A DNA stretch of 62,196 nucleotides from Candidatus Levybacteria bacterium RIFCSPLOWO2_12_FULL_39_17 (GTDB lineage: Bacteria; Patescibacteriota; Microgenomatia; Levybacterales; GWA1-39-11): contig MFPJ01000035.1 in the NCBI GenBank assembly GCA_001782675.1, positions 1-62,196 on the forward strand, read 5' to 3'. Below are positions 8,057-60,566 of this stretch, in pieces (position 1 is the stretch's first letter; every line of letters begins with the position of its first letter). The notes under the pieces were generated by a model. It saw only the letters and a list, made by a program, of their open reading frames with translations. It was not told the origin of the DNA and ran no database searches. The translations under genes were made by a program, and so were the position numbers.

Positions 8057-10024
<1,968 letters not shown>

Positions 10025-15058: not shown

Positions 15059-15634
15059 ATGGAATTATCTGCCCAAAGTATCAAGTCGAACCTCAGTAAA
15101 GGATTTACTCTCATTGAGCTTCTTGTAGTTATCGGTATTTTAGGAATTCTTGCGGCTGCTTTGGTTGCAACTATTGATCCATTTGAACAATTGAAGAAAG
15201 CCGATGATTCAAAGATTAAAAATATTGCTGTTGAATTCCAAACTGCAAATGTAAGATATTACACAACACACGGGGCATTTCCTTGGAGCGATGCGAATAA
15301 TCTTAATAATCCTAACTGTACAGGGAATAGTACATGGCCTATTCAGCTTGGGGCAACCGGCATGGTGGAATGTATTGATAACTCAAGCGGGAGCTTAACG
15401 GCAGAAGGAGAATTAAAAAAAGCCTTCGCTTCAAATCTGACTGACCTTAATAAAGTTTATGTAACATGGAGCTCAACCGATACAACCAATTTAATTGTTT
15501 GTTTCAGTCCTACATCAAAATCCCAAAAAGCGGCTCCTGAGACCAAATATAATAATGACGGAACAGACGCTCCTGCCGGTACATGTCCGGATTCAAGTGC
15601 TCCTGATGGAACCTGCTTCTGGTGCACAAGATAG
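15059..15634 (+). CDS. pilA: type IV pilin (probable major pilin)
   Basis: Prepilin cleavage/methylation motif KG|FTLIELLVVIGILGILAA. 191 aa with C-terminal Cys residues. Confidence 0.85.
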   Translation: MELSAQSIKSNLSKGFTLIELLVVIGILGILAAALVATIDPFEQLKKADDSKIKNIAVEFQTANVRYYTTHGAFPWSDANNLNNPNCTGNSTWPIQLGATGMVECIDNSSGSLTAEGELKKAFASNLTDLNKVYVTWSSTDTTNLIVCFSPTSKSQKAAPETKYNNDGTDAPAGTCPDSSAPDGTCFWCTR

Positions 15635-15682
15635 TTAAATACCCTCTTCCCTCTTTGACTATTTTAAATATATAATTTTATT

Positions 15683-16459
15683 ATGTTTATACTATCTTTT
15701 ATCTTGTCGTTTTTATTCGGCGCGGCTGTCGGCAGTTTTCTAGCTGTATTGATTGACAGGTTGAGGAGGGGAGAAACTTTTATTTCAGGAAGATCGAAGT
15801 GCGAATCATGCAAGAGAACATTAACTCCTTCGGAACTTATTCCGATATTATCTTTTTTCCTCCAAAAAGGAAAATGCAAAGGCTGCAAGGCTAAAATACC
15901 TTCAAGGCTGATTATTGCTGAGATTTTAACAGGATTATCTTTTGCCGGACTATTTTTACTTTATTATTTTGGCGGGATAGGAATAATCGAGTTAATTTAT
16001 CTCATTTTAATTCTCTCTATTTCTATTGGGATTTTTATTAGCGATATCGCTTACGGAATAATTCCGGATGAACTTGTTGTTGCTTTTCTGAGCGTTTCTT
16101 TGCTCTACGGTTTTGTTTTTGTTCCATTTGATATGATCAACCATTTTCTCTCAGGTATAGTTTTAATGCTCCTTTTTCTTATTCTATTTTTGTCAACAAA
16201 GGGACGCGGCATGGGATTTGGTGATGTTAAGCTCTCATTTGCCCTCGGCATTTTCCTGGGATTCCCTAAAATAATAGTTTCTACATATATGGCATTCTTG
16301 ACAGGAGCTTTTGTCTCCGTAATACTGATTATGTGGGGCAAGAAACGCTTAAAGAAAGATACAATTCCTTTTGGTCCGTTTCTAATTTTCTCTGCTCTGG
16401 TTTCTTATTTCATTGGAGAAATATTAATCGCACAATTCCTAGACTTTTTCCAAAGATGA
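15683..16459 (+). CDS. pilD: prepilin peptidase (A24 family)
   Basis: 258 aa. N-terminal CxxC...CxxC (CESCKRTL ... CKGCKAKI), polytopic membrane domain, and a GMGFGDVKL aspartyl motif. Confidence 0.9.
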   Translation: MFILSFILSFLFGAAVGSFLAVLIDRLRRGETFISGRSKCESCKRTLTPSELIPILSFFLQKGKCKGCKAKIPSRLIIAEILTGLSFAGLFLLYYFGGIGIIELIYLILILSISIGIFISDIAYGIIPDELVVAFLSVSLLYGFVFVPFDMINHFLSGIVLMLLFLILFLSTKGRGMGFGDVKLSFALGIFLGFPKIIVSTYMAFLTGAFVSVILIMWGKKRLKKDTIPFGPFLIFSALVSYFIGEILIAQFLDFFQR

Positions 16460-17028
16460 AGCATCAACTTTCACCACTTGTTGACTCTCATTCCCGATTG
16501 AATCGTTGTCAGTTGTCAGTTGTCAGTTGTAAGTTGTCCTCAGATGGCTTTACCTTGATCGAGTTGGTTCTTGTTGTAGCCATAATGGGTATTCTTTCTG
16601 CTTTCTTCCTTACTGTTCTTAATCCCTTTGAGCAATTCAAGAAAGCAGCCGATTCTCAAAGGAAAAGCGACCTGGCTCAAGTTCAAAGAGCGCTTGAGGT
16701 ATATTATGAGGATTACTCCAGATATCCGGAGGCTTCTTCCGACAAAATTGCTCCCCAGGGTTCCGTTAAAAATTGGGGTAGTTCATGGGCTCCGTATATT
16801 AATCTATTACCAAAAGACTCAAGCACCCAAAAATTATACATTTATATGGTTTCTCCTGATGGGCAAAGTTATTGGCTTTATGCATCTTTGGACCGACAAG
16901 GAAAGGATCCACAAGCCTGTAATCAAGACGGCTCTGCTTGTTCAAATGTCCCTGCCGGTCTTGTCTGTGGAGCAAGTGCTTCACAAATTTGTAATTACGG
17001 TATTTCCAGCCCCAATGTTTCGCCATAG
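16456..17028 (+). CDS. type IV pilin-like protein
   Basis: The ATG at 16456 overlaps the pilD TGA (ATGA). Leader MKHQLSPLVDSHSRLNRCQLSVVSCKLSSDG precedes FTLIELVLVVAIMGIL. The track ORF 16333..17028 extends spuriously back into pilD. Confidence 0.8.
   Translation: MKHQLSPLVDSHSRLNRCQLSVVSCKLSSDGFTLIELVLVVAIMGILSAFFLTVLNPFEQFKKAADSQRKSDLAQVQRALEVYYEDYSRYPEASSDKIAPQGSVKNWGSSWAPYINLLPKDSSTQKLYIYMVSPDGQSYWLYASLDRQGKDPQACNQDGSACSNVPAGLVCGASASQICNYGISSPNVSP
16505..16539 (+). repeat. GTTGTCA heptamer tandem repeat (5 units) inside the pilin leader-coding region
   Basis: Units gttgtca x3, gttgtaa, gttgtcc. The unit length is not a multiple of 3. Confidence 0.85.
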
Positions 17029-17037
17029 GGCAAAACA

Positions 17038-17072
17038 ACAATTGACATTTAACAATTAACAGTTGACAGTGT
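17038..17072 (+). repeat. degenerate heptamer array in the pilin-pilin spacer
   Basis: Units acaattg acattta acaatta acagttg acagtgt. Confidence 0.6.
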
Positions 17073-17109
17073 TATTGTCAAAAAGAACAAAATGATCTAA
17101 ACTGGAATT

Positions 17110-17571
17110 ATGAAGAAACATTCAAAAAGTCAGGCGTCAGTTGTCAATTGTCAATTGTCCCGGAGGGGCTTTACCTTAATCGAGCTTCTGGTAGTTGTTT
17201 CCATCATTTCAATTCTCGCGTCCCTCTTAATAGCAAACTTTGTAGGGATAAGACAGAGAGGGCGAGATGCGCAAAGAAAATCGGATCTTCGCCAAGTCCA
17301 AACGGCGCTTGAATTATATAGAGCGGATAATGGAACCTATCCTGTCAGTCTATCTGCTTGCGGAAGTCCATTCACTTACAATTCAACAACTTATATGCAA
17401 AAATTGCCTTGCGATCCACTCCAGGAAACAGATTACACATTTTCATCCGACGGCATAATCTATACGATATATGCCTGTCTTGAAAATGACAATGATTCGG
17501 ACCGAGACAACACAACTCAACCGGGATGTACAGCGGTAACAAATAATTCGTTTACGGTAGTAAACCCCTAA
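17110..17571 (+). CDS. type IV pilin / GspG-like pseudopilin
   Basis: Leader MKKHSKSQASVVNCQLSRRG precedes FTLIELLVVVSIISILASLL. Also has RDAQRKSDLRQVQTALELY, typical of GspG-like pilins. Confidence 0.85.
   Translation: MKKHSKSQASVVNCQLSRRGFTLIELLVVVSIISILASLLIANFVGIRQRGRDAQRKSDLRQVQTALELYRADNGTYPVSLSACGSPFTYNSTTYMQKLPCDPLQETDYTFSSDGIIYTIYACLENDNDSDRDNTTQPGCTAVTNNSFTVVNP
17131..17158 (+). repeat. CAGTTGT/CAATTGT heptamer tandem repeat inside the pilin leader-coding region
   Basis: Units caggcgt cagttgt caattgt caattgt. Confidence 0.8.
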
Positions 17572-17573
17572 TA

Positions 17574-18116
17574 ATGTTAAATTTCAAATTTCCCTTCGAA
17601 AAATCTCAGGACAAACAAATTTCAAATTTCAAATTCGCGAATGGCTTTACATTGATTGAGCTTCTGGTTGTTTTCTCTTTGATTGCAGTGATTACCGGAA
17701 TTGGTTTGGTTTCATTGGTTTCTTACAGCAGAGCTCAAACGGTGAAGCAGGCAGCGGCAGAAGTTAAACAAATGATTGATTTGGCCAAGTTTAACTCTTT
17801 GTCTTTTGTTAAGCCTGAAAGCTGCACGGATGCGCTTGCGGGATATAAACTGGACTTTTGCGCAAACACCCTTTGTCAAAGGGCAAATGTAGATTATGAA
17901 ATAGTTGTTTTGTGTACAACTGATGACCCGGTAGTTCAATTCAGAAATTTTCCGAGCAATATTTCAACCAACAATATCGGATTAAGTGAGCCCTGTACTT
18001 CGATTACATTTAATATTAATAAGCAAACTCAGGGTATCCCTTGTGAAATAAATGTTGCCGGCTATAATAATCAAGTTAAATTATCGGTTGATTCGGTAGG
18101 ATATGTTACTTATTAA
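17574..18116 (+). CDS. type IV pilin-like protein
   Basis: Leader MLNFKFPFEKSQDKQISNFKFANG precedes FTLIELLVVFSLIAVITGI. Confidence 0.75.
   Translation: MLNFKFPFEKSQDKQISNFKFANGFTLIELLVVFSLIAVITGIGLVSLVSYSRAQTVKQAAAEVKQMIDLAKFNSLSFVKPESCTDALAGYKLDFCANTLCQRANVDYEIVVLCTTDDPVVQFRNFPSNISTNNIGLSEPCTSITFNINKQTQGIPCEINVAGYNNQVKLSVDSVGYVTY
17617..17637 (+). repeat. AAATTTC heptamer tandem repeat inside the pilin leader-coding region
   Basis: Units aaatttc aaatttc aaattcg. Two more aaatttc units lie at 17579-17592. Confidence 0.75.
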
Positions 18117-26934: not shown

Positions 26935-27081
26935 AAATTAAGATAAGAATAGAGGAAGGAGCGCACTAATAAGTATTGCCAGAGAAGCAATGATTATGAA
27001 AATTTTAAAAATCCACTTATGTCTCCTCATCGCCTCCATACAAAATATATTACCAGATTTTGTTTCGAGAATAAACTTCTT

Positions 27082-27130
27082 CAGGTGTCAACGATAAACA
27101 CCTTCGGGGTGTCTTACGATTGCACCTGAG
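27082..27130 (+). repeat. REP-like double-hairpin repeat, copy 2
   Basis: Sequence caggtgtcaacgataaacaccttcggggtgtcttacgattgcacctgag. Abuts the purD stop codon. Confidence 0.8.
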
Positions 27131-28486
27131 TCATTGCAAAGATTTTTGTCTGAGTCTTTCCACATCCCGCCACCCAATATCTGTTCTAAATCTTACATTT
27201 TCTCCGTCCATTCCTTCTACAATTTCTAAGACAACGCTAAGTTTTTCTCTTGCTTCAAGAACATCTATTTCTTCTGTCATAATATAAAACAATCTTCCGC
27301 CTGCGATATAATGTTTGCTCTCTTCCATTTTGATCCCAGCACCATAAATATTTATTCCATCAAGTCTTCTCAATTCTGGCAAGCTTTTAACCTCTTTATT
27401 TCGCACTGCTTTGTAGCTTCGTGGATATCCTCTTGATGCAACTGCGACGACTACCCTAACCTTGCCATCATTTCTAATGTCAAGTCCGCTTATATCTCCG
27501 TCTACTATTGCATCTCCCAACTCCAGTAAGTCGATATTTAATCCCGGGAGAATTACCTGGGCTTCAGGGTCGCCAAGTCTTGCATTCCATTCAAGTAAGA
27601 ATTGTTTTAAGCGATCGTTTCCTATCGGTATAGCCATACCACCATGGAATATCCAGCCCCTATAGGGATTCCCTTCTTCTCTTTTCGCTGCTAGCATTTT
27701 ACTAATATTTGATTCGGTCCCTTCCTGCAAGACAACATCTCGCATTAGTAAGGGATTGGAAACAGCTCCCATTCCTCCTGTCATGTCCCCTTTATCGCCG
27801 TCCTTTTCATGTTTGTGATCCTGAGCGCTTCCAACAACGATAAAATTTGTACCGTCTGAAACCGCAAACGTTGAGGACTCTTCACCCACAAGAGCTTTTT
27901 CTATAAGAAATCTTTCGGAAGCCATTGGGTGTTCTTTCTTTAATCTTTTGATTGCATCCAGGGCTTCCTGTTTATTACTCGCGCGAATCGAACCTTTCCC
28001 CTCGGCAAGACCAGTAGCTTTCACGAACATCTTTCGCTCAGGCATTTTATCAAGCCACCCTTCTGCTTCTCTTATAGTTGAAAACGCAACCCAGTCAGGT
28101 TGAGGAATTTCTGCCGTGTCCCCCAATCTTCTTGCATATTCCTTATCCCACTCTATTCTTCCCGCAACAGAAGTTGGTCCAATAACTTTTATTCCATGAA
28201 GAAAGGCGGCATCACTCACTCCTGCCTGAACAGCATTGTCCTGACATATATCGATGTGAGTCACACCGTTTTCCTTGGAAAGAGCTATTATTTGATCAAC
28301 ATCCGAAGTTTTTATACCTGGAAAGAGCGCTACTCGGTCACTTCTTTCTTCTGCCATCATGTCATTTCCTGGGAAAACAAGAACTTTTTCTACGTGGGGA
28401 CTTTTTAAGTAAGCCTCAACTATGACAGAGCCTCTTCCGCCACCGTCAGTTACTGCAACTACTGCCTTTCTTTCTTGCGTTGCCAT
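27131..28486 (-). CDS. purD: phosphoribosylamine--glycine ligase (ATP-grasp)
   Basis: 451 aa. The N-terminus VAVTDGGGRGSVIVEAYLKSPHVEKVLVFPGND parallels PurD (GxGGREHA ... PGN). ATP-grasp core FVKATGLAEGKG. Confidence 0.8.
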   Translation of the reverse strand: MATQERKAVVAVTDGGGRGSVIVEAYLKSPHVEKVLVFPGNDMMAEERSDRVALFPGIKTSDVDQIIALSKENGVTHIDICQDNAVQAGVSDAAFLHGIKVIGPTSVAGRIEWDKEYARRLGDTAEIPQPDWVAFSTIREAEGWLDKMPERKMFVKATGLAEGKGSIRASNKQEALDAIKRLKKEHPMASERFLIEKALVGEESSTFAVSDGTNFIVVGSAQDHKHEKDGDKGDMTGGMGAVSNPLLMRDVVLQEGTESNISKMLAAKREEGNPYRGWIFHGGMAIPIGNDRLKQFLLEWNARLGDPEAQVILPGLNIDLLELGDAIVDGDISGLDIRNDGKVRVVVAVASRGYPRSYKAVRNKEVKSLPELRRLDGINIYGAGIKMEESKHYIAGGRLFYIMTEEIDVLEAREKLSVVLEIVEGMDGENVRFRTDIGWRDVERLRQKSLQ

Positions 28487-32200: not shown

Positions 32201-32266
32201 GTAATTGACGGTTTCTCCAATCTAATACAAAAAAATAAAAAATACACCTTTTCAAAAAATACAAAA

Positions 32267-32300
32267 TACACCTTCGGGGTGTCTTCCGATTGCACCTGAG
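32267..32300 (+). repeat. REP-like repeat, copy 3 (5' arm missing)
   Basis: Sequence acaccttcggggtgtcttccgattgcacctgag, 10 nt beyond the stop codon of the HUH transposase gene. Confidence 0.8.
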
Positions 32301-32309
32301 TATTTTTGA

Positions 32310-32966
32310 TCATACCCACTCGCTTTCGAAGTCGAGCAGGAGGTGTTTTACTCGATCGAGTTTTTTTGCATAATCAATATGGTCTAAAACAAATTGCTTA
32401 TAATCACCCTTTGTTTTGAACTGATCAAGAATTATATCTTTTTCACAAACACCATCTCTTGCAGAATCAATATATTCAGAATAGGATGACCATCTGTATG
32501 TCTCAAGATTTTTTGTTACGAAACCGATTAATGGATTGAGATGGATATAACGCCCAAGGTGAAGTAGTTGTTCGTTTGATTCAATATGTACAGCTTTAAA
32601 ATCTCCTTGCAAAAGCGGACCTACACGGTTATTTTTGATATTGAAATATTTAGTATAGCTGTTACTTATCCTGCTAATAAATTCTGAAGTTCCACCATCT
32701 CTTATCTGTTTCAGTAAGAAATGAAAGTGATTTGGCATAAAACAATAGGAAATTATATCAACGATCTTTTTAGTTGAATCTAATTCATAAGTTTCTGGTG
32801 TAAATATTGAGAATCGCGGTTTCTGACCATCAATTTGATAATAAAGGACACATTTGAGAAATCTATTATAATCATAGGAATTATTAAAAATTCTCATCTT
32901 CGCAACGCCACGGTTGAATATGTGGTAGTATTCTCCGGCTGCAAGAGGTACTTTTCTTGATGCCAT
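32310..32966 (-). CDS. IS200/IS605-type Y1 HUH transposase, REP-associated (RAYT-like)
   Basis: 218 aa. HUH motif in CFMPNHFHFLLKQ and a catalytic-Tyr helix GRYIHLNPL. No IS ends or tnpB, but repeat copies lie on both flanks. Confidence 0.8.
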   Translation of the reverse strand: MASRKVPLAAGEYYHIFNRGVAKMRIFNNSYDYNRFLKCVLYYQIDGQKPRFSIFTPETYELDSTKKIVDIISYCFMPNHFHFLLKQIRDGGTSEFISRISNSYTKYFNIKNNRVGPLLQGDFKAVHIESNEQLLHLGRYIHLNPLIGFVTKNLETYRWSSYSEYIDSARDGVCEKDIILDQFKTKGDYKQFVLDHIDYAKKLDRVKHLLLDFESEWV

Positions 32967-32991
32967 ATACTAAATAAAGCAAATATTGCGT

Positions 32992-33040
32992 CAGGTGTCA
33001 ACGGTAAACACCTTCGGGGTGTCTTACGATTGCACCTTCG
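32992..33040 (+). repeat. REP-like double-hairpin repeat, copy 4
   Basis: Sequence caggtgtcaacggtaaacaccttcggggtgtcttacgattgcaccttcgg, 25 nt upstream of the HUH transposase ATG. Confidence 0.8.
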
Positions 33041-40723: not shown

Positions 40724-41290
40724 TTACAATCCCAAGGGCATGGCTATCTCTTTCATTGAATTTAAGACTATTTCAATAAATTTCAACAAAGGAATCCCGA
40801 GTTTTTCCTCGCAGGTAATTATCGAAACCCTGTCTGCTCCCTTGGCAAATGATTTTTCATAAAATCTTTTAAGGACAAATTCCGGGCTCATCGATTCAAG
40901 TTTTTTGGTTGGGCTCACCAGAGCTGCCGCAACAATTAAACCGGTCAACTGATCGCAGCATGATATTGCCCAGTCAAGAGGCGAAATCGGATTTATTTTT
41001 GTATTTTGGTAGTTATGAGCTTTTATTGCGTACGCTATTTCATCCGGCAATTTTACTTTCTCGGTAATCATGATTCCATGTTCCTCGGGATGATTTCTTA
41101 CAAGCTCATAATCCGCATCATGCAAAAGTCCTGTTATCTGCCAGTTGGTTAGGGTTTCCTGATCGGGCTCAACAAGCAAAAATTTGCAAATGCCTGCCAT
41201 TGCTGCTTCAGTTGCCAAGCTGTGCTTGATGAGATTGGGATTTTTTAGATAAGTTGTAAGAATACGGAAAGCTTCAAACCTCGTCACCAA
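40724..41290 (-). CDS. HD-domain metal-dependent phosphohydrolase
   Basis: 188 aa. H ... HD motif (IKHSLATEA ... LLHDADYE). Confidence 0.75.
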   Translation of the reverse strand: MVTRFEAFRILTTYLKNPNLIKHSLATEAAMAGICKFLLVEPDQETLTNWQITGLLHDADYELVRNHPEEHGIMITEKVKLPDEIAYAIKAHNYQNTKINPISPLDWAISCCDQLTGLIVAAALVSPTKKLESMSPEFVLKRFYEKSFAKGADRVSIITCEEKLGIPLLKFIEIVLNSMKEIAMPLGL

Positions 41291-41340
41291 TTTATTATAG
41301 CAACAAAAATTATGAATTTGAAATTGTGAAATTTAACATT

Positions 41341-41470
41341 AGCTTGGCGGGCTCAAGAGGACTTGCCTGTCCGGCGCGGGCGCGAAACCTCTGACCTTTA
41401 CAATGTCAACCTGCCTGCCTGCCTGCCTGCAGGCGTGACGCCCTAACCAATCCCAGCACTGTCTTGCCCC
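41341..41470 (-). pseudogene. tRNA-Val(GAC)-derived pseudogene with GC-rich insertions
   Basis: Shares aggacttg / aaacctctgacctttacaatgtcaa / gtgacgccctaaccaa with the intact tRNA-Val at 41530-41603. It is interrupted by cctgtccggcgcgggcgcg in the T-loop and by (cctg)5cagg in the anticodon stem. The acceptor stem no longer pairs. Confidence 0.4.
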
Positions 41471-41529
41471 GATTGAATCGGGGCTTAGAAGTGGCGGGGG
41501 GATCCCGAAGTTCTAAGCTTTGCATCGTG

Positions 41530-41603
41530 TGGGCGCATCAGGACTTGAACCTGAGACCTTTACAATGTCAATGTAACGCTCTAACCAACTGAGCTATGCG
41601 CCC
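41530..41603 (-). tRNA. tRNA-Val (anticodon GAC)
   Basis: Hand-folded cloverleaf, 74 nt. Acceptor GGGCGCA/TGCGCCC, anticodon loop TTGACAT, T-loop TTCAAGT. Confidence 0.9.
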
Positions 41604-41624
41604 TTTTAAAGTTTACAAAGCTAG

Positions 41625-41700
41625 ATACTTCTGGGACTGAGCTACGAGTCCAGGCACTGTCGGGCAGGTCTAACCAACTGAGCTAAGGATCCGATCCGAA
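41625..41700 (-). other. tRNA 5'-half fragments
   Basis: The minus strand contains two D-arm-like pieces (ccttagctcagttggttagac and ctcgtagctcagtccc). No complete cloverleaf can be folded. Confidence 0.35.
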
Positions 41701-41784
41701 CTATTCTACCAAGGCTGGATCTAATTGTAAAGAAACCTTACGAGTAATAACCCGTTGGCACATGCCCCCCCTGGAAAGGTATCC

Positions 41785-41833
41785 CAGGTGTCAAGCTAAG
41801 ACACCTTCGGGGTGTCTTACGCAGACACCCGGG
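41785..41833 (+). repeat. REP-like double-hairpin repeat, copy 5 (variant arms)
   Basis: Sequence caggtgtcaagctaagacaccttcggggtgtcttacgcagacacccggggg. Confidence 0.7.
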
Positions 41834-42040: not shown

Positions 42041-42080
42041 CAAGGATACTCCTTGTCGTGCGTGGCAGGGATACTCCTTG
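42041..42080. repeat. paired CAAGGATACTCCTTG palindromes
   Basis: caaggatactccttg-tcgtgcgtgg-cagggatactccttg. The same 40-nt module recurs at 60501-60540. Confidence 0.75.
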
Positions 42081-42198
42081 CAGTTCCTCGCTTGAAAAAG
42101 CTTCTGAAAAGGAATTTTTTTGAAAGGAGGTTTTTTTGAATCTTTTGCAACCTACTCGTTTCTACGCGTCCAACGCAGCAGCTCTGCGCTCATTATAG

Positions 42199-47867: not shown

Positions 47868-47949
47868 GGGCTTGTGCTGAAATTGGTATACAGGCATGCT
47901 TGAGGTGCATGTGCCGCAAGGCGTGGAGGTTCGAGTCCTCTCAAGCCCA
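47868..47949 (+). tRNA. tRNA-Leu (anticodon GAG)
   Basis: 82-nt class II tRNA. Acceptor GGGCTTG/CAAGCCC, anticodon stem-loop catgc-TTGAGGT-gcatg, G37, A73, 13-nt variable arm. Confidence 0.85.
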
Positions 47950-47957
47950 CACCTCAT

Positions 47958-49525
<1,568 letters not shown>

Positions 49526-49607
49526 TTGTTTATCATAAAAGTTCTTTTAAACAAGCGAAGCGCGTTAGCTTCATTTCCAAAATTTTTGCGTCTTTTACTG
49601 CTTTTTA

Positions 49608-49712
49608 CGGCTGCTTTCTCCGATTTTCAAAAAGGGCTTTGATACGCTCTTTTCGGAATTTGTCCCCCATGCAAATTCCGCAATTCCGCCTTCAAAATTC
49701 CTGAGTGTGGAC
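49608..49712. repeat. IR-A right arm (105 bp, perfect)
   Basis: Reverse complement of 48026-48130. Overlaps the IR-B left arm by the 7-bp core tgtggac (49706-49712). Confidence 0.95.
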
Positions 49713-49787
49713 ATTTACGAAAAAATCCGAACTCAATTCAAAAAAGAAAATTCTTAAACTAATTCGCTCGGGCTTCGCCCTCGCTCT
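49706..49787. repeat. IR-B left arm (82 bp, perfect)
   Basis: Exact reverse complement of 52895-52976. Confidence 0.95.
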
Positions 49788-49991
49788 CAAAAACTGTCGG
49801 CTCGTCTCAGATTTATCTGAAGAAAGCGCAAAAATTTTGTTAAAGAACTTTTAACCTAAAATGGCGCAACCGGTAGGCTCAGTTGGGATTGTGTTCCAAA
49901 ACTGTCCGATTGCGCCATTAAAAAACACAATCCGCCAAAACTGAGTCCGTTTTTAATTTATAGGAAAATCGTACACAAATCAAGCCATACG

Positions 49992-50990
49992 TTAACAATT
50001 GATCCAATAGAGGTTCTTAATTCTTTTTGCTAGGTTAAAAGAATTTGCATGCGACACATATCCCAAGTAAGATTGTAAAGCCTGATAATCACTGCCTTGC
50101 ATAAGCTTCTTCAATATTCTCCTCTTAGTACTAGTCCTGGGCAAAGTGTAATGGGGTAAAACAATGTATCCGCAAAAATCAATTCCCCATGAAAGTTTTC
50201 TTGCTGAGGTTTTCTTTGGGTGTAATTCAAGTTTTAAATTCTCTTCCAGGAATTCATTGACAGCGATAAGGTAATCTTCGTGCTGTTTGGTGTTTACACT
50301 TAAGATCAAGAAATCGTCGGCATAACGAAGATAGTGTTTCATTTTTAATCTATGTTTAACAAACTGGTCTAACTCGTTTAAGTATACATTTGAAAATATC
50401 TGGCTGGTTAAATTACCAAGTGGAATTCCACGACCAGATCCTCTCTCAGAACTAAAGCTATCTATTACATTATTGATAAGCCAGTTAATTTCCTCATCCT
50501 TGACCTTTCTTGAAATAAGCTCCTTTAAAATACTGTGATCAACTGAGGCAAAGAACTTTTTAATATCGCATTTCAAAGACCAACACTCACCCGTATAGTT
50601 GAGGCTTACAGCTCTTGTCATTTTCTTAAGCCTTTTGACAGCTTTGTGCGTTCCCTTACTCTTCCGACAAGAATACGAATCGTAAATAAAGTGTTTATCA
50701 AACAATTCGTATAGATATTTGTAGAGAAGATGGTGCAGGACACGGTCGCGAACGTTTGATTTATGGATATGGCGTCTTTTAGGATCTGTTACGTAAAATT
50801 CTTGATATGTACCGTGTTTATATGTTTTCTTGTTTAATTCTTCATATAAACTAAATAGGTTATCTTCCAAATGTCTTTCAAATTTTTGCACGTCCTTTTT
50901 ATTTCTTTTTTCCTTTTTAAACTCGTCCCATGCGTGAAATAGGTTTTCAATTGTTATAATATCTCGATACTTTAATTCTTCTGCCTTCAT
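49992..50990 (-). CDS. DGR-type reverse transcriptase
   Basis: 332 aa. YADD box (LRYADDFLIL) and RGIPLGNLTSQIFSNVYLNELD (DGR-typical LGxxxSQ). Lies next to a TR/VR pair. Confidence 0.9.
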   Translation of the reverse strand: MKAEELKYRDIITIENLFHAWDEFKKEKRNKKDVQKFERHLEDNLFSLYEELNKKTYKHGTYQEFYVTDPKRRHIHKSNVRDRVLHHLLYKYLYELFDKHFIYDSYSCRKSKGTHKAVKRLKKMTRAVSLNYTGECWSLKCDIKKFFASVDHSILKELISRKVKDEEINWLINNVIDSFSSERGSGRGIPLGNLTSQIFSNVYLNELDQFVKHRLKMKHYLRYADDFLILSVNTKQHEDYLIAVNEFLEENLKLELHPKKTSARKLSWGIDFCGYIVLPHYTLPRTSTKRRILKKLMQGSDYQALQSYLGYVSHANSFNLAKRIKNLYWINC

Positions 50991-51040
50991 AAATTTTTCA
51001 AACTATATATGCAGACTGGCAAAAATATACACAAAGACGC

Positions 51041-51064
51041 AGAGAGAGAGAGAGAGAGAGAGAG
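51041..51064. repeat. (AG)12 microsatellite
   Basis: agagag... x12, followed by tgtgagagtgag. Lies in the divergent RT/Avd spacer. Confidence 0.9.
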
Positions 51065-51097
51065 TGTGAGAGTGAGTATAAACTACCCCTAAATGAT

Positions 51098-51454
51098 ATT
51101 CCGATTTTCATTAAGCTTTATGATTTTTACAAAAATTTAACACCTGTTATTACTGCTTTTCCTAAAACGAAGCGCTACACTTTGGGGCAGAAATTGGACA
51201 ATATAACTCTTGATATTCTCGAATTATTGTTTTCTGTACCCGCGTCTAAGGACAAGGTCGACATACTTCAGCAAATAAGTACAAAAATTGACCTTATTAA
51301 AGTCTTACTACGACTTGCAAAAGACAGTCAGGCAATACAAAACAACAAATATTTAGGACTTGAATCAATTTTACAAGAAATAGGCAGGATGCTTGGGAGA
51401 TGGATAAGATCAACCAAGCAAAATAGTGGGCAGGGGCAGGATAAGCTTCTTTAA
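51098..51454 (+). CDS. avd: DGR accessory variability determinant (Avd, four-helix-bundle family)
   Basis: The C-terminus LQEIGRMLGRWIRSTKQNSGQG parallels Bordetella phage bAvd (EVGRILGSWIARVNRKGQAG). The track ORF starts at TTG 51182, but the homologous N-terminus IPIFIKLYDFYKNLTPVITAFPKTKRYTLG lies in frame upstream with no ATG/GTG/TTG, so the 5' limit is uncertain. Confidence 0.7.
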   Translation: MPIFIKLYDFYKNLTPVITAFPKTKRYTLGQKLDNITLDILELLFSVPASKDKVDILQQISTKIDLIKVLLRLAKDSQAIQNNKYLGLESILQEIGRMLGRWIRSTKQNSGQGQDKLL

Positions 51455-51464
51455 CCTCACCAGA

Positions 51465-51579
51465 TACTTCCATGCGGAGAACACCTATGTTCTGATTGCC
51501 GTTGTCGCGATTCCAGTTATTCACGTTCACCCCGTTGTCGGGCTTAGCATTACCAACGTTGGCGACATTCGAGCCAGTG
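51465..51579 (-). repeat. DGR template repeat (TR)
   Basis: 115-bp match to 51882-51996. In the VR frame it encodes TGSNVANVGNAKPDNGVNVNNWNRDNGNQNIGVLRMEV, rich in AAY Asn codons. Confidence 0.9.
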
Positions 51580-51851
51580 CTTCCGCGAGTAATTCTCCGT
51601 AATATATAATTCTCACTATAGTTTGATTGCTCTTACTACTGTATTTTATTCGTCCCAAGGACAAAAGAGAAAAACTCGTAGTGTCTAGTAAGCTTACTTT
51701 AAGTACGCTTTTGACAATTACTTGTCAAAACTCTGACTTTTGAAAGTTCTAGAAATAGGCGAAGAATAAAACGTGTTTATGCTTTCACTGCCTAATGAGG
51801 GTATTTTACAAAAAAAATTTCGGAAAAACCAAGAGGAAAAATCCAAAAGAA

Positions 51852-51881
51852 CCAAAAAACCAATTACTTAGTCTCAATTGG
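51852..51881 (-). terminator. hairpin + T-run at the target-gene stop (terminator and/or DGR target-recognition hairpin)
   Basis: Minus strand reads CCAATT-gagactaagt-AATTGG then TTTTTT. The stop codon sits in the loop, immediately 3' of VR. Confidence 0.5.
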
Positions 51882-52679
51882 CACTACCATGCGGAGAACA
51901 CCTATGTCCCGACGGCCGCTGCCGCGACCCCAGTGATCCACGAACACCCCGTAGCCGGGCCCAGCATCACCAACGTAGGCGACATCCGAGCCAGTGGAAT
52001 TTGTAGGATTTTTAGTTCTTGTATATACATAGTTTAGGCCTTGAGCTGCTGCATATTCGGATCCAAGTAACCACTGTCCTGTTGCTTCTTCGTGCTGAAA
52101 GACTATATCTGTAACGGTAGATGCTTCGCCGGGAATTATTTGTCCTAATCCTTCTTGTCCTAGTCTTTGTCTTAATTCAACTGCATCAACAGCCACAGCC
52201 TTATCTTGTCCCTCTACACCTTTACTGAAACTGTCAGGCACAAAAGCTCTTTCTGGAGCGGGATATATAGCTATTTCAACCTTTCGTGAAGGAACGGCTA
52301 CTAATCTGTTTTCACTTGTGGTTAGGTACGCAAAAGAAGGTTTCCCTTTTTTAGCACGGGAATCTTTTTGAGCTGTAATCGTTTCTCCAAGTGGAGTATA
52401 TATAAGTGCACCATCGGCAATTAAAGCCTCTCTTTCCACATCTGTGAAGCTTTCTCTAATAGTCAATTGTTCAATAACCGTTGGTGTTTCAAGAGGAACT
52501 GGCGCTGTAGGACTAGAAAAATGTTCAGGCATACCAAGTTTCCTTGCAATTTTGGCTCGTGCGCCATAGGATTTAGCGTCAGCGCTGAGTGTGTCTGCAA
52601 GATCAGGATAACCCTTCTGCTTGAATTGTTTGGCTAATTGATCGGCTTGTCGACGTAACTGGTCAAGTTCTGCTGCCAT
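51864..52679 (-). CDS. DGR target (variable) protein with C-terminal VR
   Basis: 271 aa. VR encodes TGSDVAYVGDAGPGYGVFVDHWGRGSGRRDIGVLRMVV at the extreme C-terminus. The ...W...G..R pattern is typical of CLec-fold DGR targets. Confidence 0.85.
   Translation of the reverse strand: MAAELDQLRRQADQLAKQFKQKGYPDLADTLSADAKSYGARAKIARKLGMPEHFSSPTAPVPLETPTVIEQLTIRESFTDVEREALIADGALIYTPLGETITAQKDSRAKKGKPSFAYLTTSENRLVAVPSRKVEIAIYPAPERAFVPDSFSKGVEGQDKAVAVDAVELRQRLGQEGLGQIIPGEASTVTDIVFQHEEATGQWLLGSEYAAAQGLNYVYTRTKNPTNSTGSDVAYVGDAGPGYGVFVDHWGRGSGRRDIGVLRMVVPIETK
51882..51996 (-). repeat. DGR variable repeat (VR)
   Basis: Differs from TR at 20 positions. All are T in TR on the plus strand, i.e. A on the coding strand. 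No other mismatches. Confidence 0.9.
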
Positions 52680-52688
52680 AATCCGAGC

Positions 52689-52717
52689 ATTTTATACTAA
52701 CTATAGGGCGTTGTCAA
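52689..52717 (-). promoter_or_regulatory. sigma-70-like promoter of the DGR target gene
   Basis: Minus strand: TTGACA, 17-nt spacer, TAAAAT. The ATG at 52679 is 9 nt downstream of the -10 box. Confidence 0.5.
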
Positions 52718-52894
52718 GATCCCGCCTGTTTTTTTAATCTTAAACATTTTGCTATAACTTTCCCTTTAAAATTTGTTAAAATACAAGGGAGTAAAATATA
52801 TTGTCCGCGTACGGGAAGGGTTGGGACAAGGACAATTAAAATAAATTTCCTTGCTCGTACGATAGTAACGAGAAAATCGCGCGCAAAAATACCT

Positions 52895-52976
52895 AGAGCG
52901 AGGGCGAAGCCCGAGCGAATTAGTTTAAGAATTTTCTTTTTTGAATTGAGTTCGGATTTTTTCGTAAATGTCCACA
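52895..52976. repeat. IR-B right arm (82 bp, perfect)
   Basis: Reverse complement of 49706-49787. Ends in the core gtccaca. Confidence 0.95.
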
Positions 52977-53144: not shown

Positions 53145-53331
53145 CAGCATTGGCGGGCAGGCAATGAATTCGATTGCACCTGCGGGTATGCTGCTTAAAA
53201 AAACTTCACCAGACTCCATAAAAAAGCCCCAGATCATAAACATACGGGGTAGGTAAGCATAACTCATAATTTCTCACTCTTTCTTACAAAACTCTTACAC
53301 AAAATCGCTTGAAGTTTTAATTTTTAATTGC

Positions 53332-60500: not shown

Positions 60501-60566
60501 TAAGGATACTCCTTGTCGTGCGTGATAAGGATACTCCTTGTCGGTAAACCTCCTTGTCGGTAAACC
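60501..60566. repeat. paired TAAGGATACTCCTTG palindromes plus a 16-nt tandem duplication
   Basis: taaggatactccttg-tcgtgcgtga-taaggatactccttg, then tccttgtcggtaaacc x2. Confidence 0.75.

Follow-up and report, generated by a model that had tools for sequence, protein, structure and literature searches.

The stretch of DNA analysed here, hereafter the window, comprises 62,196 nucleotides of contig MFPJ01000035.1 of Candidatus Levybacteria bacterium RIFCSPLOWO2_12_FULL_39_17 and contains a gene for a Y1 HUH transposase that is flanked on both sides by hairpin-forming repeats, further copies of which are scattered over the window. The gene lies on the minus strand (32310 to 32966) and is the only HUH Y1 gene in the window, as stated in a preliminary description that was made from the sequence alone. 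It encodes a protein of 218 amino acids with an NHFH motif (H80 and H82), a YIHLNP motif containing the catalytic tyrosine Y140, a WSSY motif and a helical C-terminal extension of about 75 amino acids. The protein matches the Pfam family Y1_Tnp (24.2 bits, cut-off 23), and its score for the NCBIfam family REP_Tyr_transpos is 40 bits, below the cut-off of 80. The two flanking hairpins bracket the gene as tightly as had been described: one ends 9 nucleotides past the stop codon and the other starts 25 nucleotides before the ATG. No tnpB gene was present beside the Y1 gene or beside any of the homologues examined, in agreement with the preliminary description.

The protein family is a large one: clustering of the homologues at 50% gave 439 clusters with E values up to 1e-30 and 6732 clusters with E values up to 1e-10, and the close relatives that bear a source name are labelled Candidatus Levybacteria. 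In an alignment of 69 members H15, H80, H82 and G116 are invariant, and R139-Y140-x-H-L-N-P and S160-S161 are nearly so. The family consensus contains an FQ motif (GPLFQGxFKAV), at which position the window protein itself reads LLQG. A search of the PDB with the family profile retrieved TnpAREP of E. coli (4ER8) as first match (E 1.6e-7, 34.5 bits), with ISDra2 TnpA at about 1e-3 (21.8 bits); the family profile was required, as a phmmer search of the PDB with the single protein gave no relevant match. A Foldseek search with an AlphaFold2 model of the window protein (pLDDT 94) likewise placed 4ER8 at the top (E 2.6e-7, target TM-score 0.68), above IS608 and ISDra2. Profile and fold thus place the protein on the RAYT side and not with IS200, as the earlier reading of the sequence had it.

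The closest described proteins are the TIRYTs. Di Nocera et al. (2013, PMC3733652) described RAYT-like genes with long inverted repeats, some of them self-complementary, solo copies of which are moderately abundant and occur as singles, dimers or groups. Quentin et al. (2018, PMC6006769) equate TnpA-Y1 subclass 2.1 with Group 1 of Bertels et al. and regard the TIRYTs as probably equivalent to it. Key motifs of this subclass are NH[YF]H or NHVH as HuH motif, FQ or W[EQ], Y[IV]HLNP or YIELNP, and SS in the proximal tail (Table 1 in Quentin et al., 2018, PMC6006769); NHFH, YIHLNP and WSSY are present in the window protein and FQ in the family consensus. For comparison, 18 sequences were rebuilt from Additional file 5 of Di Nocera et al. 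(2013, PMC3733652). The window protein matched most of the printed TIRYTs in blastp searches with E values of 1e-17 to 1e-23 (60–82 bits), with lower scores for an Acidobacteria subgroup. The best matches were gbm2474 (8e-23, nearly full length), rba2408 (5e-22) and dau2153 (1e-20). Matches to RAYTs reached 25–50 bits (P. fluorescens RAYT 1e-11, E. coli RayT 0.009), and the family profile scored 101–129 bits on the best nine TIRYTs versus 34.5 bits on E. coli RayT. Because the blastp and profile scores for TIRYTs far exceed those for RayT, the window protein is, as judged from its sequence, a member of the TIRYT group, which corresponds to TnpA-Y1 subclass 2.1 and Group 1 RAYTs. The suggestion that the system might form a distinct new class of REP does not hold, as the protein falls into this published group.

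The repeat family in the window is marked by the 15-mer ACACCTTCGGGGTGT, which occurs five times without mismatch (at 2190, 27098, 32268, 33008 and 41801), always on the plus strand. Dinucleotide-preserving shuffles of the window contained on average 0.05 matches and none reached five. A profile built from 61 related units found the same five copies and an arm-only match at 53169–53188 (nhmmer E 0.008). The number, the coordinates and the common strand of the five copies given in the preliminary description were thereby confirmed, and their common orientation is explained by the neighbouring genes, which run on the minus strand. A sixth copy had been reported as a 3'-arm fragment at about 53175–53190; an arm-only match does exist there, and it is marginal. 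This possible remnant (CGATTGCACCTG, 53169 to 53188, plus strand) follows a tRNA-Gly gene; it is a weak match and has three mismatches in 16 positions. Three copies are solo full hairpins, all on the plus strand. The copy at 2174–2220 is flanked by two minus-strand genes, an IMP-cyclohydrolase-like gene and folD. The copy at 27082–27130 is located upstream of a small open reading frame and recG and abuts a stop codon that had been assigned to purD, correctly so, since the gene is a true purD with GARS domains. The copy at 41785–41833 has a variant arm (GTCAAGCTAAG / CGCAGAC) and is found beside a tRNA-Val gene.

Four of the five copies have complementary arms on both sides of the core, and the copy at 32268 (32267–32300) has a 3' arm only, as previously described. 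As a single strand each full copy folds into an imperfect hairpin that is continuous along its approximately 19 pairs and is closed by a TTCGG loop of 5 nucleotides, and the DNA folding energies of the four two-armed copies range from -8.5 to -15.4 kcal/mol (z-scores -2.5 to -5.1). What had been described as two separate stems with a UUCG tetraloop is in fact one interrupted stem, the loop of which is not a cUUCGg tetraloop; the "double hairpin" of about 47 nucleotides consists of two inverted arms around one shared core. The earlier remark that the repeat has no GTAG head is correct, since neither GTAG nor GTGG is found at the foot of the palindrome.

The two copies beside the Y1 gene form its ends. 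On the strand of the gene, which is the minus strand, the left-end inverted repeat (32990 to 33022) starts with the core ACACC-CCGAA-GGTGT (33022–33008) and continues inward with the arm TTACCGTTGACACCTGAC. An extra outer arm (33023 to 33040, minus strand), which completes this end to a full hairpin of about 47 nucleotides, is present only in the clade of the window, L015 and L044 (related loci are given by such L numbers). The right-end inverted repeat (32262 to 32305, minus strand) consists of the arm CTCAGGTGCAATCGGAAG, the same core and a T-run, and is terminator-like on the strand of the gene. Homologous loci with 45–87% identity, about 12 of them distinct, were compared with their flanks written in the orientation of the gene. 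In all of them the upstream end consists of the core followed by an arm ending in (G)TTGACACCTG (TTGACAC), 28–31 nucleotides before the ATG, and the downstream end, 7–34 nucleotides after the stop codon, consists of an arm (CAG)GTG[CT]AATCGTAAG followed by the same core. Each outer end thus carries a GC-rich hairpin of 5–7 base pairs with an inward arm of about 18 nucleotides. The upstream arm is, with some mismatches, the reverse complement of the downstream arm, so that both ends together form a pair of inverted repeats of about 45 nucleotides with the hairpin outermost. The statement that no insertion sequence (IS) ends are present is therefore incorrect, since the two flanking copies are the conserved terminal inverted repeats of the Y1 gene.

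Repeats and gene change together across genomes, and the proposal that the hairpin repeats on either side belong to the gene, with dispersed copies elsewhere, is borne out. The core stems agree at both ends of a gene and differ by lineage: ACACC/GGTGT in most cases, CCACC/GGTGG in L024 and TCCACC/GGTGGA in the 45%-identical paralogue of L020. The loops are the same on one strand at both ends in the window, L001, L002, L015, L022, L044, L061 and L066, and are inverted in L020 and L040. In three contigs that hold a Y1 gene together with a solo unit, the loop and arm variants of gene ends and solo unit match. The L020 contig (2651–3500 and 14817–14860) contains two Y1 paralogues that are 45% identical and each have their own end sequence, and a solo unit with a TTGACA arm, 11 kb from the second paralogue, matches the ends of that paralogue. 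The consensus of 61 units is CCGATT-ACACC-N5-GGTGT-CTTACGATTACACCTG(G/C)GG, in which the CGATT tag at the foot of the hairpin occurs in many relatives and is absent from the clade of the window. On the outer side of many units the tag and one half of the core stem, CCGATTACACC(yt), are repeated in tandem one to three additional times (L043 7620–7650, L064, L073, L078, L082 and L002 10684–10720). These additional copies may have arisen when units were cut and rejoined repeatedly, or by slippage.

The arm at the left end also contains a putative promoter of the Y1 gene (32967 to 33001, minus strand). A -35 hexamer TTGACA (33001–32996) is followed by a spacer of 17 nucleotides that ends in TGC, a -10 hexamer TTTATT (32978–32973), 6 nucleotides and the ATG. 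The arrangement TTGACA-17 nucleotides-TGnTTTAYT-6 nucleotides-ATG recurs in most homologues, which suggests that the upstream arm could serve as a promoter giving a leaderless mRNA. A consensus promoter scanner did not report the left-end promoter, because its -10 hexamer has no A at position 2, so that the evidence for this promoter is the conserved spacing. A promoter role of the upstream arm would account for the constant difference between the two arms (TTGACAC versus ATT[GA]CAC).

The Y1 gene is located between the genes for PBP1a and PheT in at least eight genomes, with 60–87% identity (the window, L002, L008, L015/L055, L022, L044, L054 and L066), and at other sites with both ends kept in L001, L020, L024 and L040. 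Ratios of nonsynonymous to synonymous substitutions (dN/dS) were 0.03–0.06 for the three closest homologues, with dS values of 1.3 or more. Despite a dS above 1, a block of 44 nucleotides at the upstream end is identical between the window and L015. The low dN/dS and the identical 44-nucleotide end indicate that gene and ends are both strongly constrained and probably for the most part inherited vertically, with occasional relocation as a unit. The Y1 gene is a conserved and probably domesticated single-strand DNA transposase gene. Y1 paralogues on the same contig are 45–63% identical, and no near-identical second copy was seen in the fetched contigs. Viral contigs contained no hairpin units and only one distant relative of the protein, and a plasmid search gave only remote relatives annotated as transposase.

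Units outside the window were searched in two ways. A strict-match scan of one genome per species, which would miss diverged copies, found matches in six Levybacteria or Microgenomates assemblies, with 1–4 per matching genome (for example four in 774 kb of JACQJR01 contigs), in a "Gammaproteobacteria" metagenome-assembled genome that is syntenic with the window, and as three chance matches in GC-rich genomes. The motif is present in relatives in low numbers. The two loci labelled uncultured Gammaproteobacteria (L014 and L016, CAYZZF01) have the PBP1a-tyrS-recG gene order of the window, 57–65% protein identity and the same hairpin units, and the label of this metagenome-assembled genome is probably wrong. 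A scan of metagenomes for units yielded 62 stretches. After removal of duplicate contexts 80 units were left, of which 21 adjoin a Y1 gene and 59 are solo; the latter comprise 42 half units and 17 full hairpins, some of which were counted on both strands. As the search patterns were built on the right-end arm, the numbers for the two types of unit are biased.

Solo units occur with both types of arm, including the TTGACA arm, and their neighbours are unrelated housekeeping genes (purD, tyrS, dnaB twice, folD, DHFR, pilC, glycosyltransferases and Fic). The bias in placement and orientation that the preliminary description had brought up is present among the solo half units. On the side of the arm, 27 of them adjoin the 3' end of an opposite-strand gene and four adjoin a 5' end. 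In 11 cases a stop codon lies within -6 to +17 nucleotides of the arm, and in three cases the arm supplies the last codons (…Q V stop). GC skew did not separate an orientation relative to genes from an orientation relative to replication. Comparison of individual sites showed presence and absence of units. The copy at 2190 has an orthologous copy in L018 (46 of 50 positions identical, flanking genes 72–76% identical). No unit is present at the site of the 27098 copy in L002, in L022 or in the closest genome, L055, and L014 has a half unit there. The region around 41801 has no copy in L044, and L005 and L034 have copies nearby at a different position. In L085 (about 8560–8620) a hairpin unit lies in frame inside the essential pheT gene, where it encodes KPQGVIGRHPKGVIGKPTKS as part of a variable linker; at this place the sequence of the orthologues is unrelated. 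Apart from this in-frame case and some length variants, no pairs of filled and empty sites were found among near-identical contigs. Together these comparisons indicate that units are gained and lost, and that this happens slowly.

We consider it likely that the locus is of the TIRtron type, that is, a Y1 HUH gene of the TIRYT group that is single and passed on vertically, with terminal inverted repeats of about 45 nucleotides and a small family of scattered solo units. By analogy with E. coli TnpAREP and IS608 TnpA, the Y1 protein would bind the folded core hairpin on single-stranded DNA, cut beside the hairpin by means of Tyr140 and the metal site formed by His80 and His82, and rejoin the strands. 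Occasionally one unit would be copied or moved in this way and, rarely, the whole gene with its ends. Units would be retained at places where they are of little harm, directly behind stop codons and oriented like the right end behind the Y1 gene. Units in this position may also serve as hairpins at the 3' end of an RNA, and the upstream arm may double as promoter of the Y1 gene.

Several observations weigh against this explanation or limit it. In the 15 full hairpins 84.6% of the cells pair in register versus 29–54% when the arms are slid against each other, and covariation in the long stem of these hairpins was not above that of shuffles, so that the long stem reflects two conserved inverted arms and is no demonstration of selection for pairing. 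Compensatory changes in the long stem were considered as a line of evidence and dropped for this reason; paired changes were seen only in the 5-bp core between gene lineages. Among the contigs compared, L020 and L042 have two diverged Y1 genes each, and the GGGGWSAS motif of many TIRYT repeats is matched at only seven of eight positions by the nearest string, GGGGTGTC. The copy shared by the window (2190) and L018 shows that at least one solo copy is old and inherited, and units may therefore be kept for a function in the host and not by spread. The low copy number means that activity, if any, is rare. The counts of the two types of unit are affected by the search patterns, as mentioned, and cleavage, the use of single-stranded DNA and mobilisation in trans are attributed to the protein by analogy with its relatives.

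One alternative is an ordinary autonomous element of the IS200/IS605 type, in which the flanking hairpins would be the left and right subterminal hairpins, with recognition on one strand, and the solo copies miniature derivatives or scars. The cores at both ends mostly have the same loop on the same strand, as at IS200/IS605 ends, the gene occurs with both ends in several contexts, and Group 1 RAYTs are the most IS-like group of RAYTs (Bertels et al., 2017, PMC5581495). We nevertheless regard such an element as unlikely. The tyrosine motif is YIHLNP of class 2 and not Y---Q, the protein has 218 amino acids with a C-terminal extension as opposed to about 150, and profile and fold favour TnpAREP. 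The absence of tnpB and, in the contigs fetched, of a near-identical second copy (the paralogues being 45–63% identical) also argues against it, as does the occupation of the same site in at least eight genomes with saturated synonymous sites and a dN/dS of 0.03–0.06. In addition, internal deletion of such an element would leave core-arm-arm-core, not the arm-core-arm of the full hairpins. A host origin of the hairpins, which would then be RNA elements such as terminators or 3'-end stabilisers that flank an unrelated Y1 gene by chance, appears very improbable, even though RNA of the full hairpin forms a very stable fold (-23.4 kcal/mol, z -4.1) and the core at the right end of the window gene is followed by a T-run with a terminator-like score. 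Solo half units just past stop codons in a fixed orientation (27 versus 4) and the solo copy kept at an orthologous site would fit this origin, and REPs in general are mostly found downstream of genes (Di Nocera et al., 2013, PMC3733652). Most units, however, have no T-run, half units fold no better than shuffles, and Rfam gave no match for the hairpins at gathering or E-value thresholds. Moreover, both ends go with the gene in every homologue and context, their stems changing together down to 45% identity; the L020 paralogue has its own cognate solo copy; one unit lies in frame inside pheT; and the upstream copy has a divergent gene on either side, a position in which a terminator would serve no evident purpose.

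A further possibility is that the locus is a hairpin-specific integrating module. Cuts at equal offsets beside the direct cores would release a circle with an arm-core-arm junction, which would re-enter the chromosome at an existing core. The geometry core-arm-gene-arm-core with direct loops and complementary inner arms would permit this, the full hairpin is the junction that it predicts, and solo one-armed cores are found with both types of arm. This scheme is drawn from geometry only; neither pairs of empty and filled sites nor reads across a circle junction were found, and L020 and L040 have inverted loops at their ends, which makes the scheme improbable in our view. Equally doubtful is a wider version, according to which the Y1 protein would place promoter-bearing modules (the TTGACA arm) and terminator-like modules (core plus arm) at gene boundaries of a reduced genome by hairpin-specific single-strand recombination, so that the units would not be mere passengers. 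A circular intermediate would then have the full hairpin as its junction and would integrate at cores already in place. If this version were true, Y1 proteins of subclass 2.1 would be site-specific "gene-boundary editors" and not decayed transposases. Two other candidates were rejected: integron-like cassettes of an open reading frame plus hairpin, because the neighbours are housekeeping genes (dnaB, tyrS, folD, DHFR) and neither arrays nor an integrase are present, and a TnpB guide RNA at the right end, because the neighbours are not TnpB.

The TIRtron-type locus shares several features with the published TIRYT/TIRtron systems. The protein family has the motifs NH[YF]H, FQ, Y[IV]HLNP and SS and a C-terminal extension beyond Y1 transposases that consist of the core only, and the printed TIRYT sequences are its best protein matches. 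The repeats are long inverted repeats and not GTAG REPs, some of them contain self-complementary tracts, and solo repeats are moderately numerous, as single units or as dimers (three solo full hairpins in the window), with a low copy number of the gene. In addition to the incomplete match to GGGGWSAS, it differs from them in its host, a member of the Levybacteria in the candidate phyla radiation, for which no report of Y1 or REP systems was found in the searchable literature. The window protein, with 218 amino acids versus a subclass median of 238, is without the long distal tail of gbm2474-type proteins, and the repeats have a defined outer hairpin and an inner arm with a putative promoter, with the CGATT tag in many relatives. 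Quentin et al. (2018, PMC6006769) did not find REP-like structures in the vicinity of subclass 2.1 genes, whereas hairpin structures are obvious here. Bertels et al. (2017, PMC5581495) reported about 12 occurrences per replicon of the 16-mers that flank Group 1 genes.

Classical REP/RAYT systems (the REP/BIME of E. coli TnpAREP and the REPINs of Pseudomonas RAYT) resemble the locus in having a probably domesticated, apparently single Y1 gene with inverted palindromic repeats that are also dispersed between genes, co-evolution of repeat and gene, and repeats that are mostly downstream of genes and occasionally in frame within them. A pair of inverted units gives a long hairpin, as it does in a REPIN; among solved structures 4ER8 is the closest, and the Y---NP motif of class 2 is shared. 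However, the repeats of the window have no GT[AG]G tag at the 5' foot, and their number (five copies in 62 kb, 1–4 strict matches per matching genome) contrasts with more than 100 per genome for classical REPs. The protein belongs to another subclass, with 25–50 bits against RAYTs versus 60–82 bits against most TIRYTs, and a REP_Tyr_transpos score at half the cut-off (40 versus 80 bits). With the IS200/IS605 elements IS608 and ISDra2 the locus shares the HUH/Y1 fold, a hairpin at either end, mostly with identical loops on one strand, and no obvious target duplication, and it differs from them by its class 2 tyrosine motif, the absence of tnpB, ends that are also inverted repeats, and a gene that is syntenic, strongly conserved and apparently single as opposed to multi-copy. 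The locus is therefore a known kind of system, belonging to the TIRYT/TIRtron branch of REP/RAYT; the host lineage is new, and the architecture is unusually easy to read. Among the class 2 Y1 HUH proteins, subclass 2.1 (Group 1) forms the largest group. The present locus extends RAYT-like systems to the candidate phyla radiation, here groundwater Levybacteria with a tiny genome. It combines a co-varying hairpin repeat at both ends with a few solo copies in a small genome whose intergenic regions are short, and it offers defined substrates for a cleavage assay, namely the core hairpin, the arm and, in relatives, the CGATT tag. Its small and countable repeat population is suited to the question whether such systems are mobile, domesticated or both.

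Some other features of the window were recorded. The purD gene next to the solo hairpin (27131–28486, GARS N, A and C domains) is located between tyrS and recG in this genome only and is absent from this position in L002, L022, L055 and L014. Just upstream of recG, at about 26938–27039 on the minus strand, a conserved open reading frame encodes a hydrophobic peptide of about 33 amino acids (MEAMRRHKWIFKIFIIIASLAILISALLPLFLS) that is also present in L002, L022, L014 and L055. The region 41290–41800, near the third solo hairpin, contains tRNA-Val (41529–41603, minus strand), tRNA-like fragments and a (CCTG)4 run, and its content differs among related genomes (L005, L034 and L044). Another small repeat, the core of which is palindromic (AAGGATACTCCTTGTCGTGCGTG..AGGGATACTCCTTG), occurs at 42042–42105 and 60502–60540 and is unrelated to the Y1 hairpin family. 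A gene for a large serine recombinase (47990–49525, minus strand; Resolvase, Recombinase and Zn ribbon domains) adjoins tRNA-Leu and tRNA-Val and is bracketed by perfect inverted repeats of 105 nucleotides (48026–48130/49608–49712) and 82 nucleotides (49706–49787/52895–52976); this region (47868–52976) could be an integrated element, an invertible element or an assembly artefact. Finally, runs of GTCAGTTGTCAGTTG-like repeats (81–110, 16508–16537 and 17129–17158; 15101–17687) are found upstream of several pilin-like genes, whose products have a common N-terminal segment, GFTLIELLVV.

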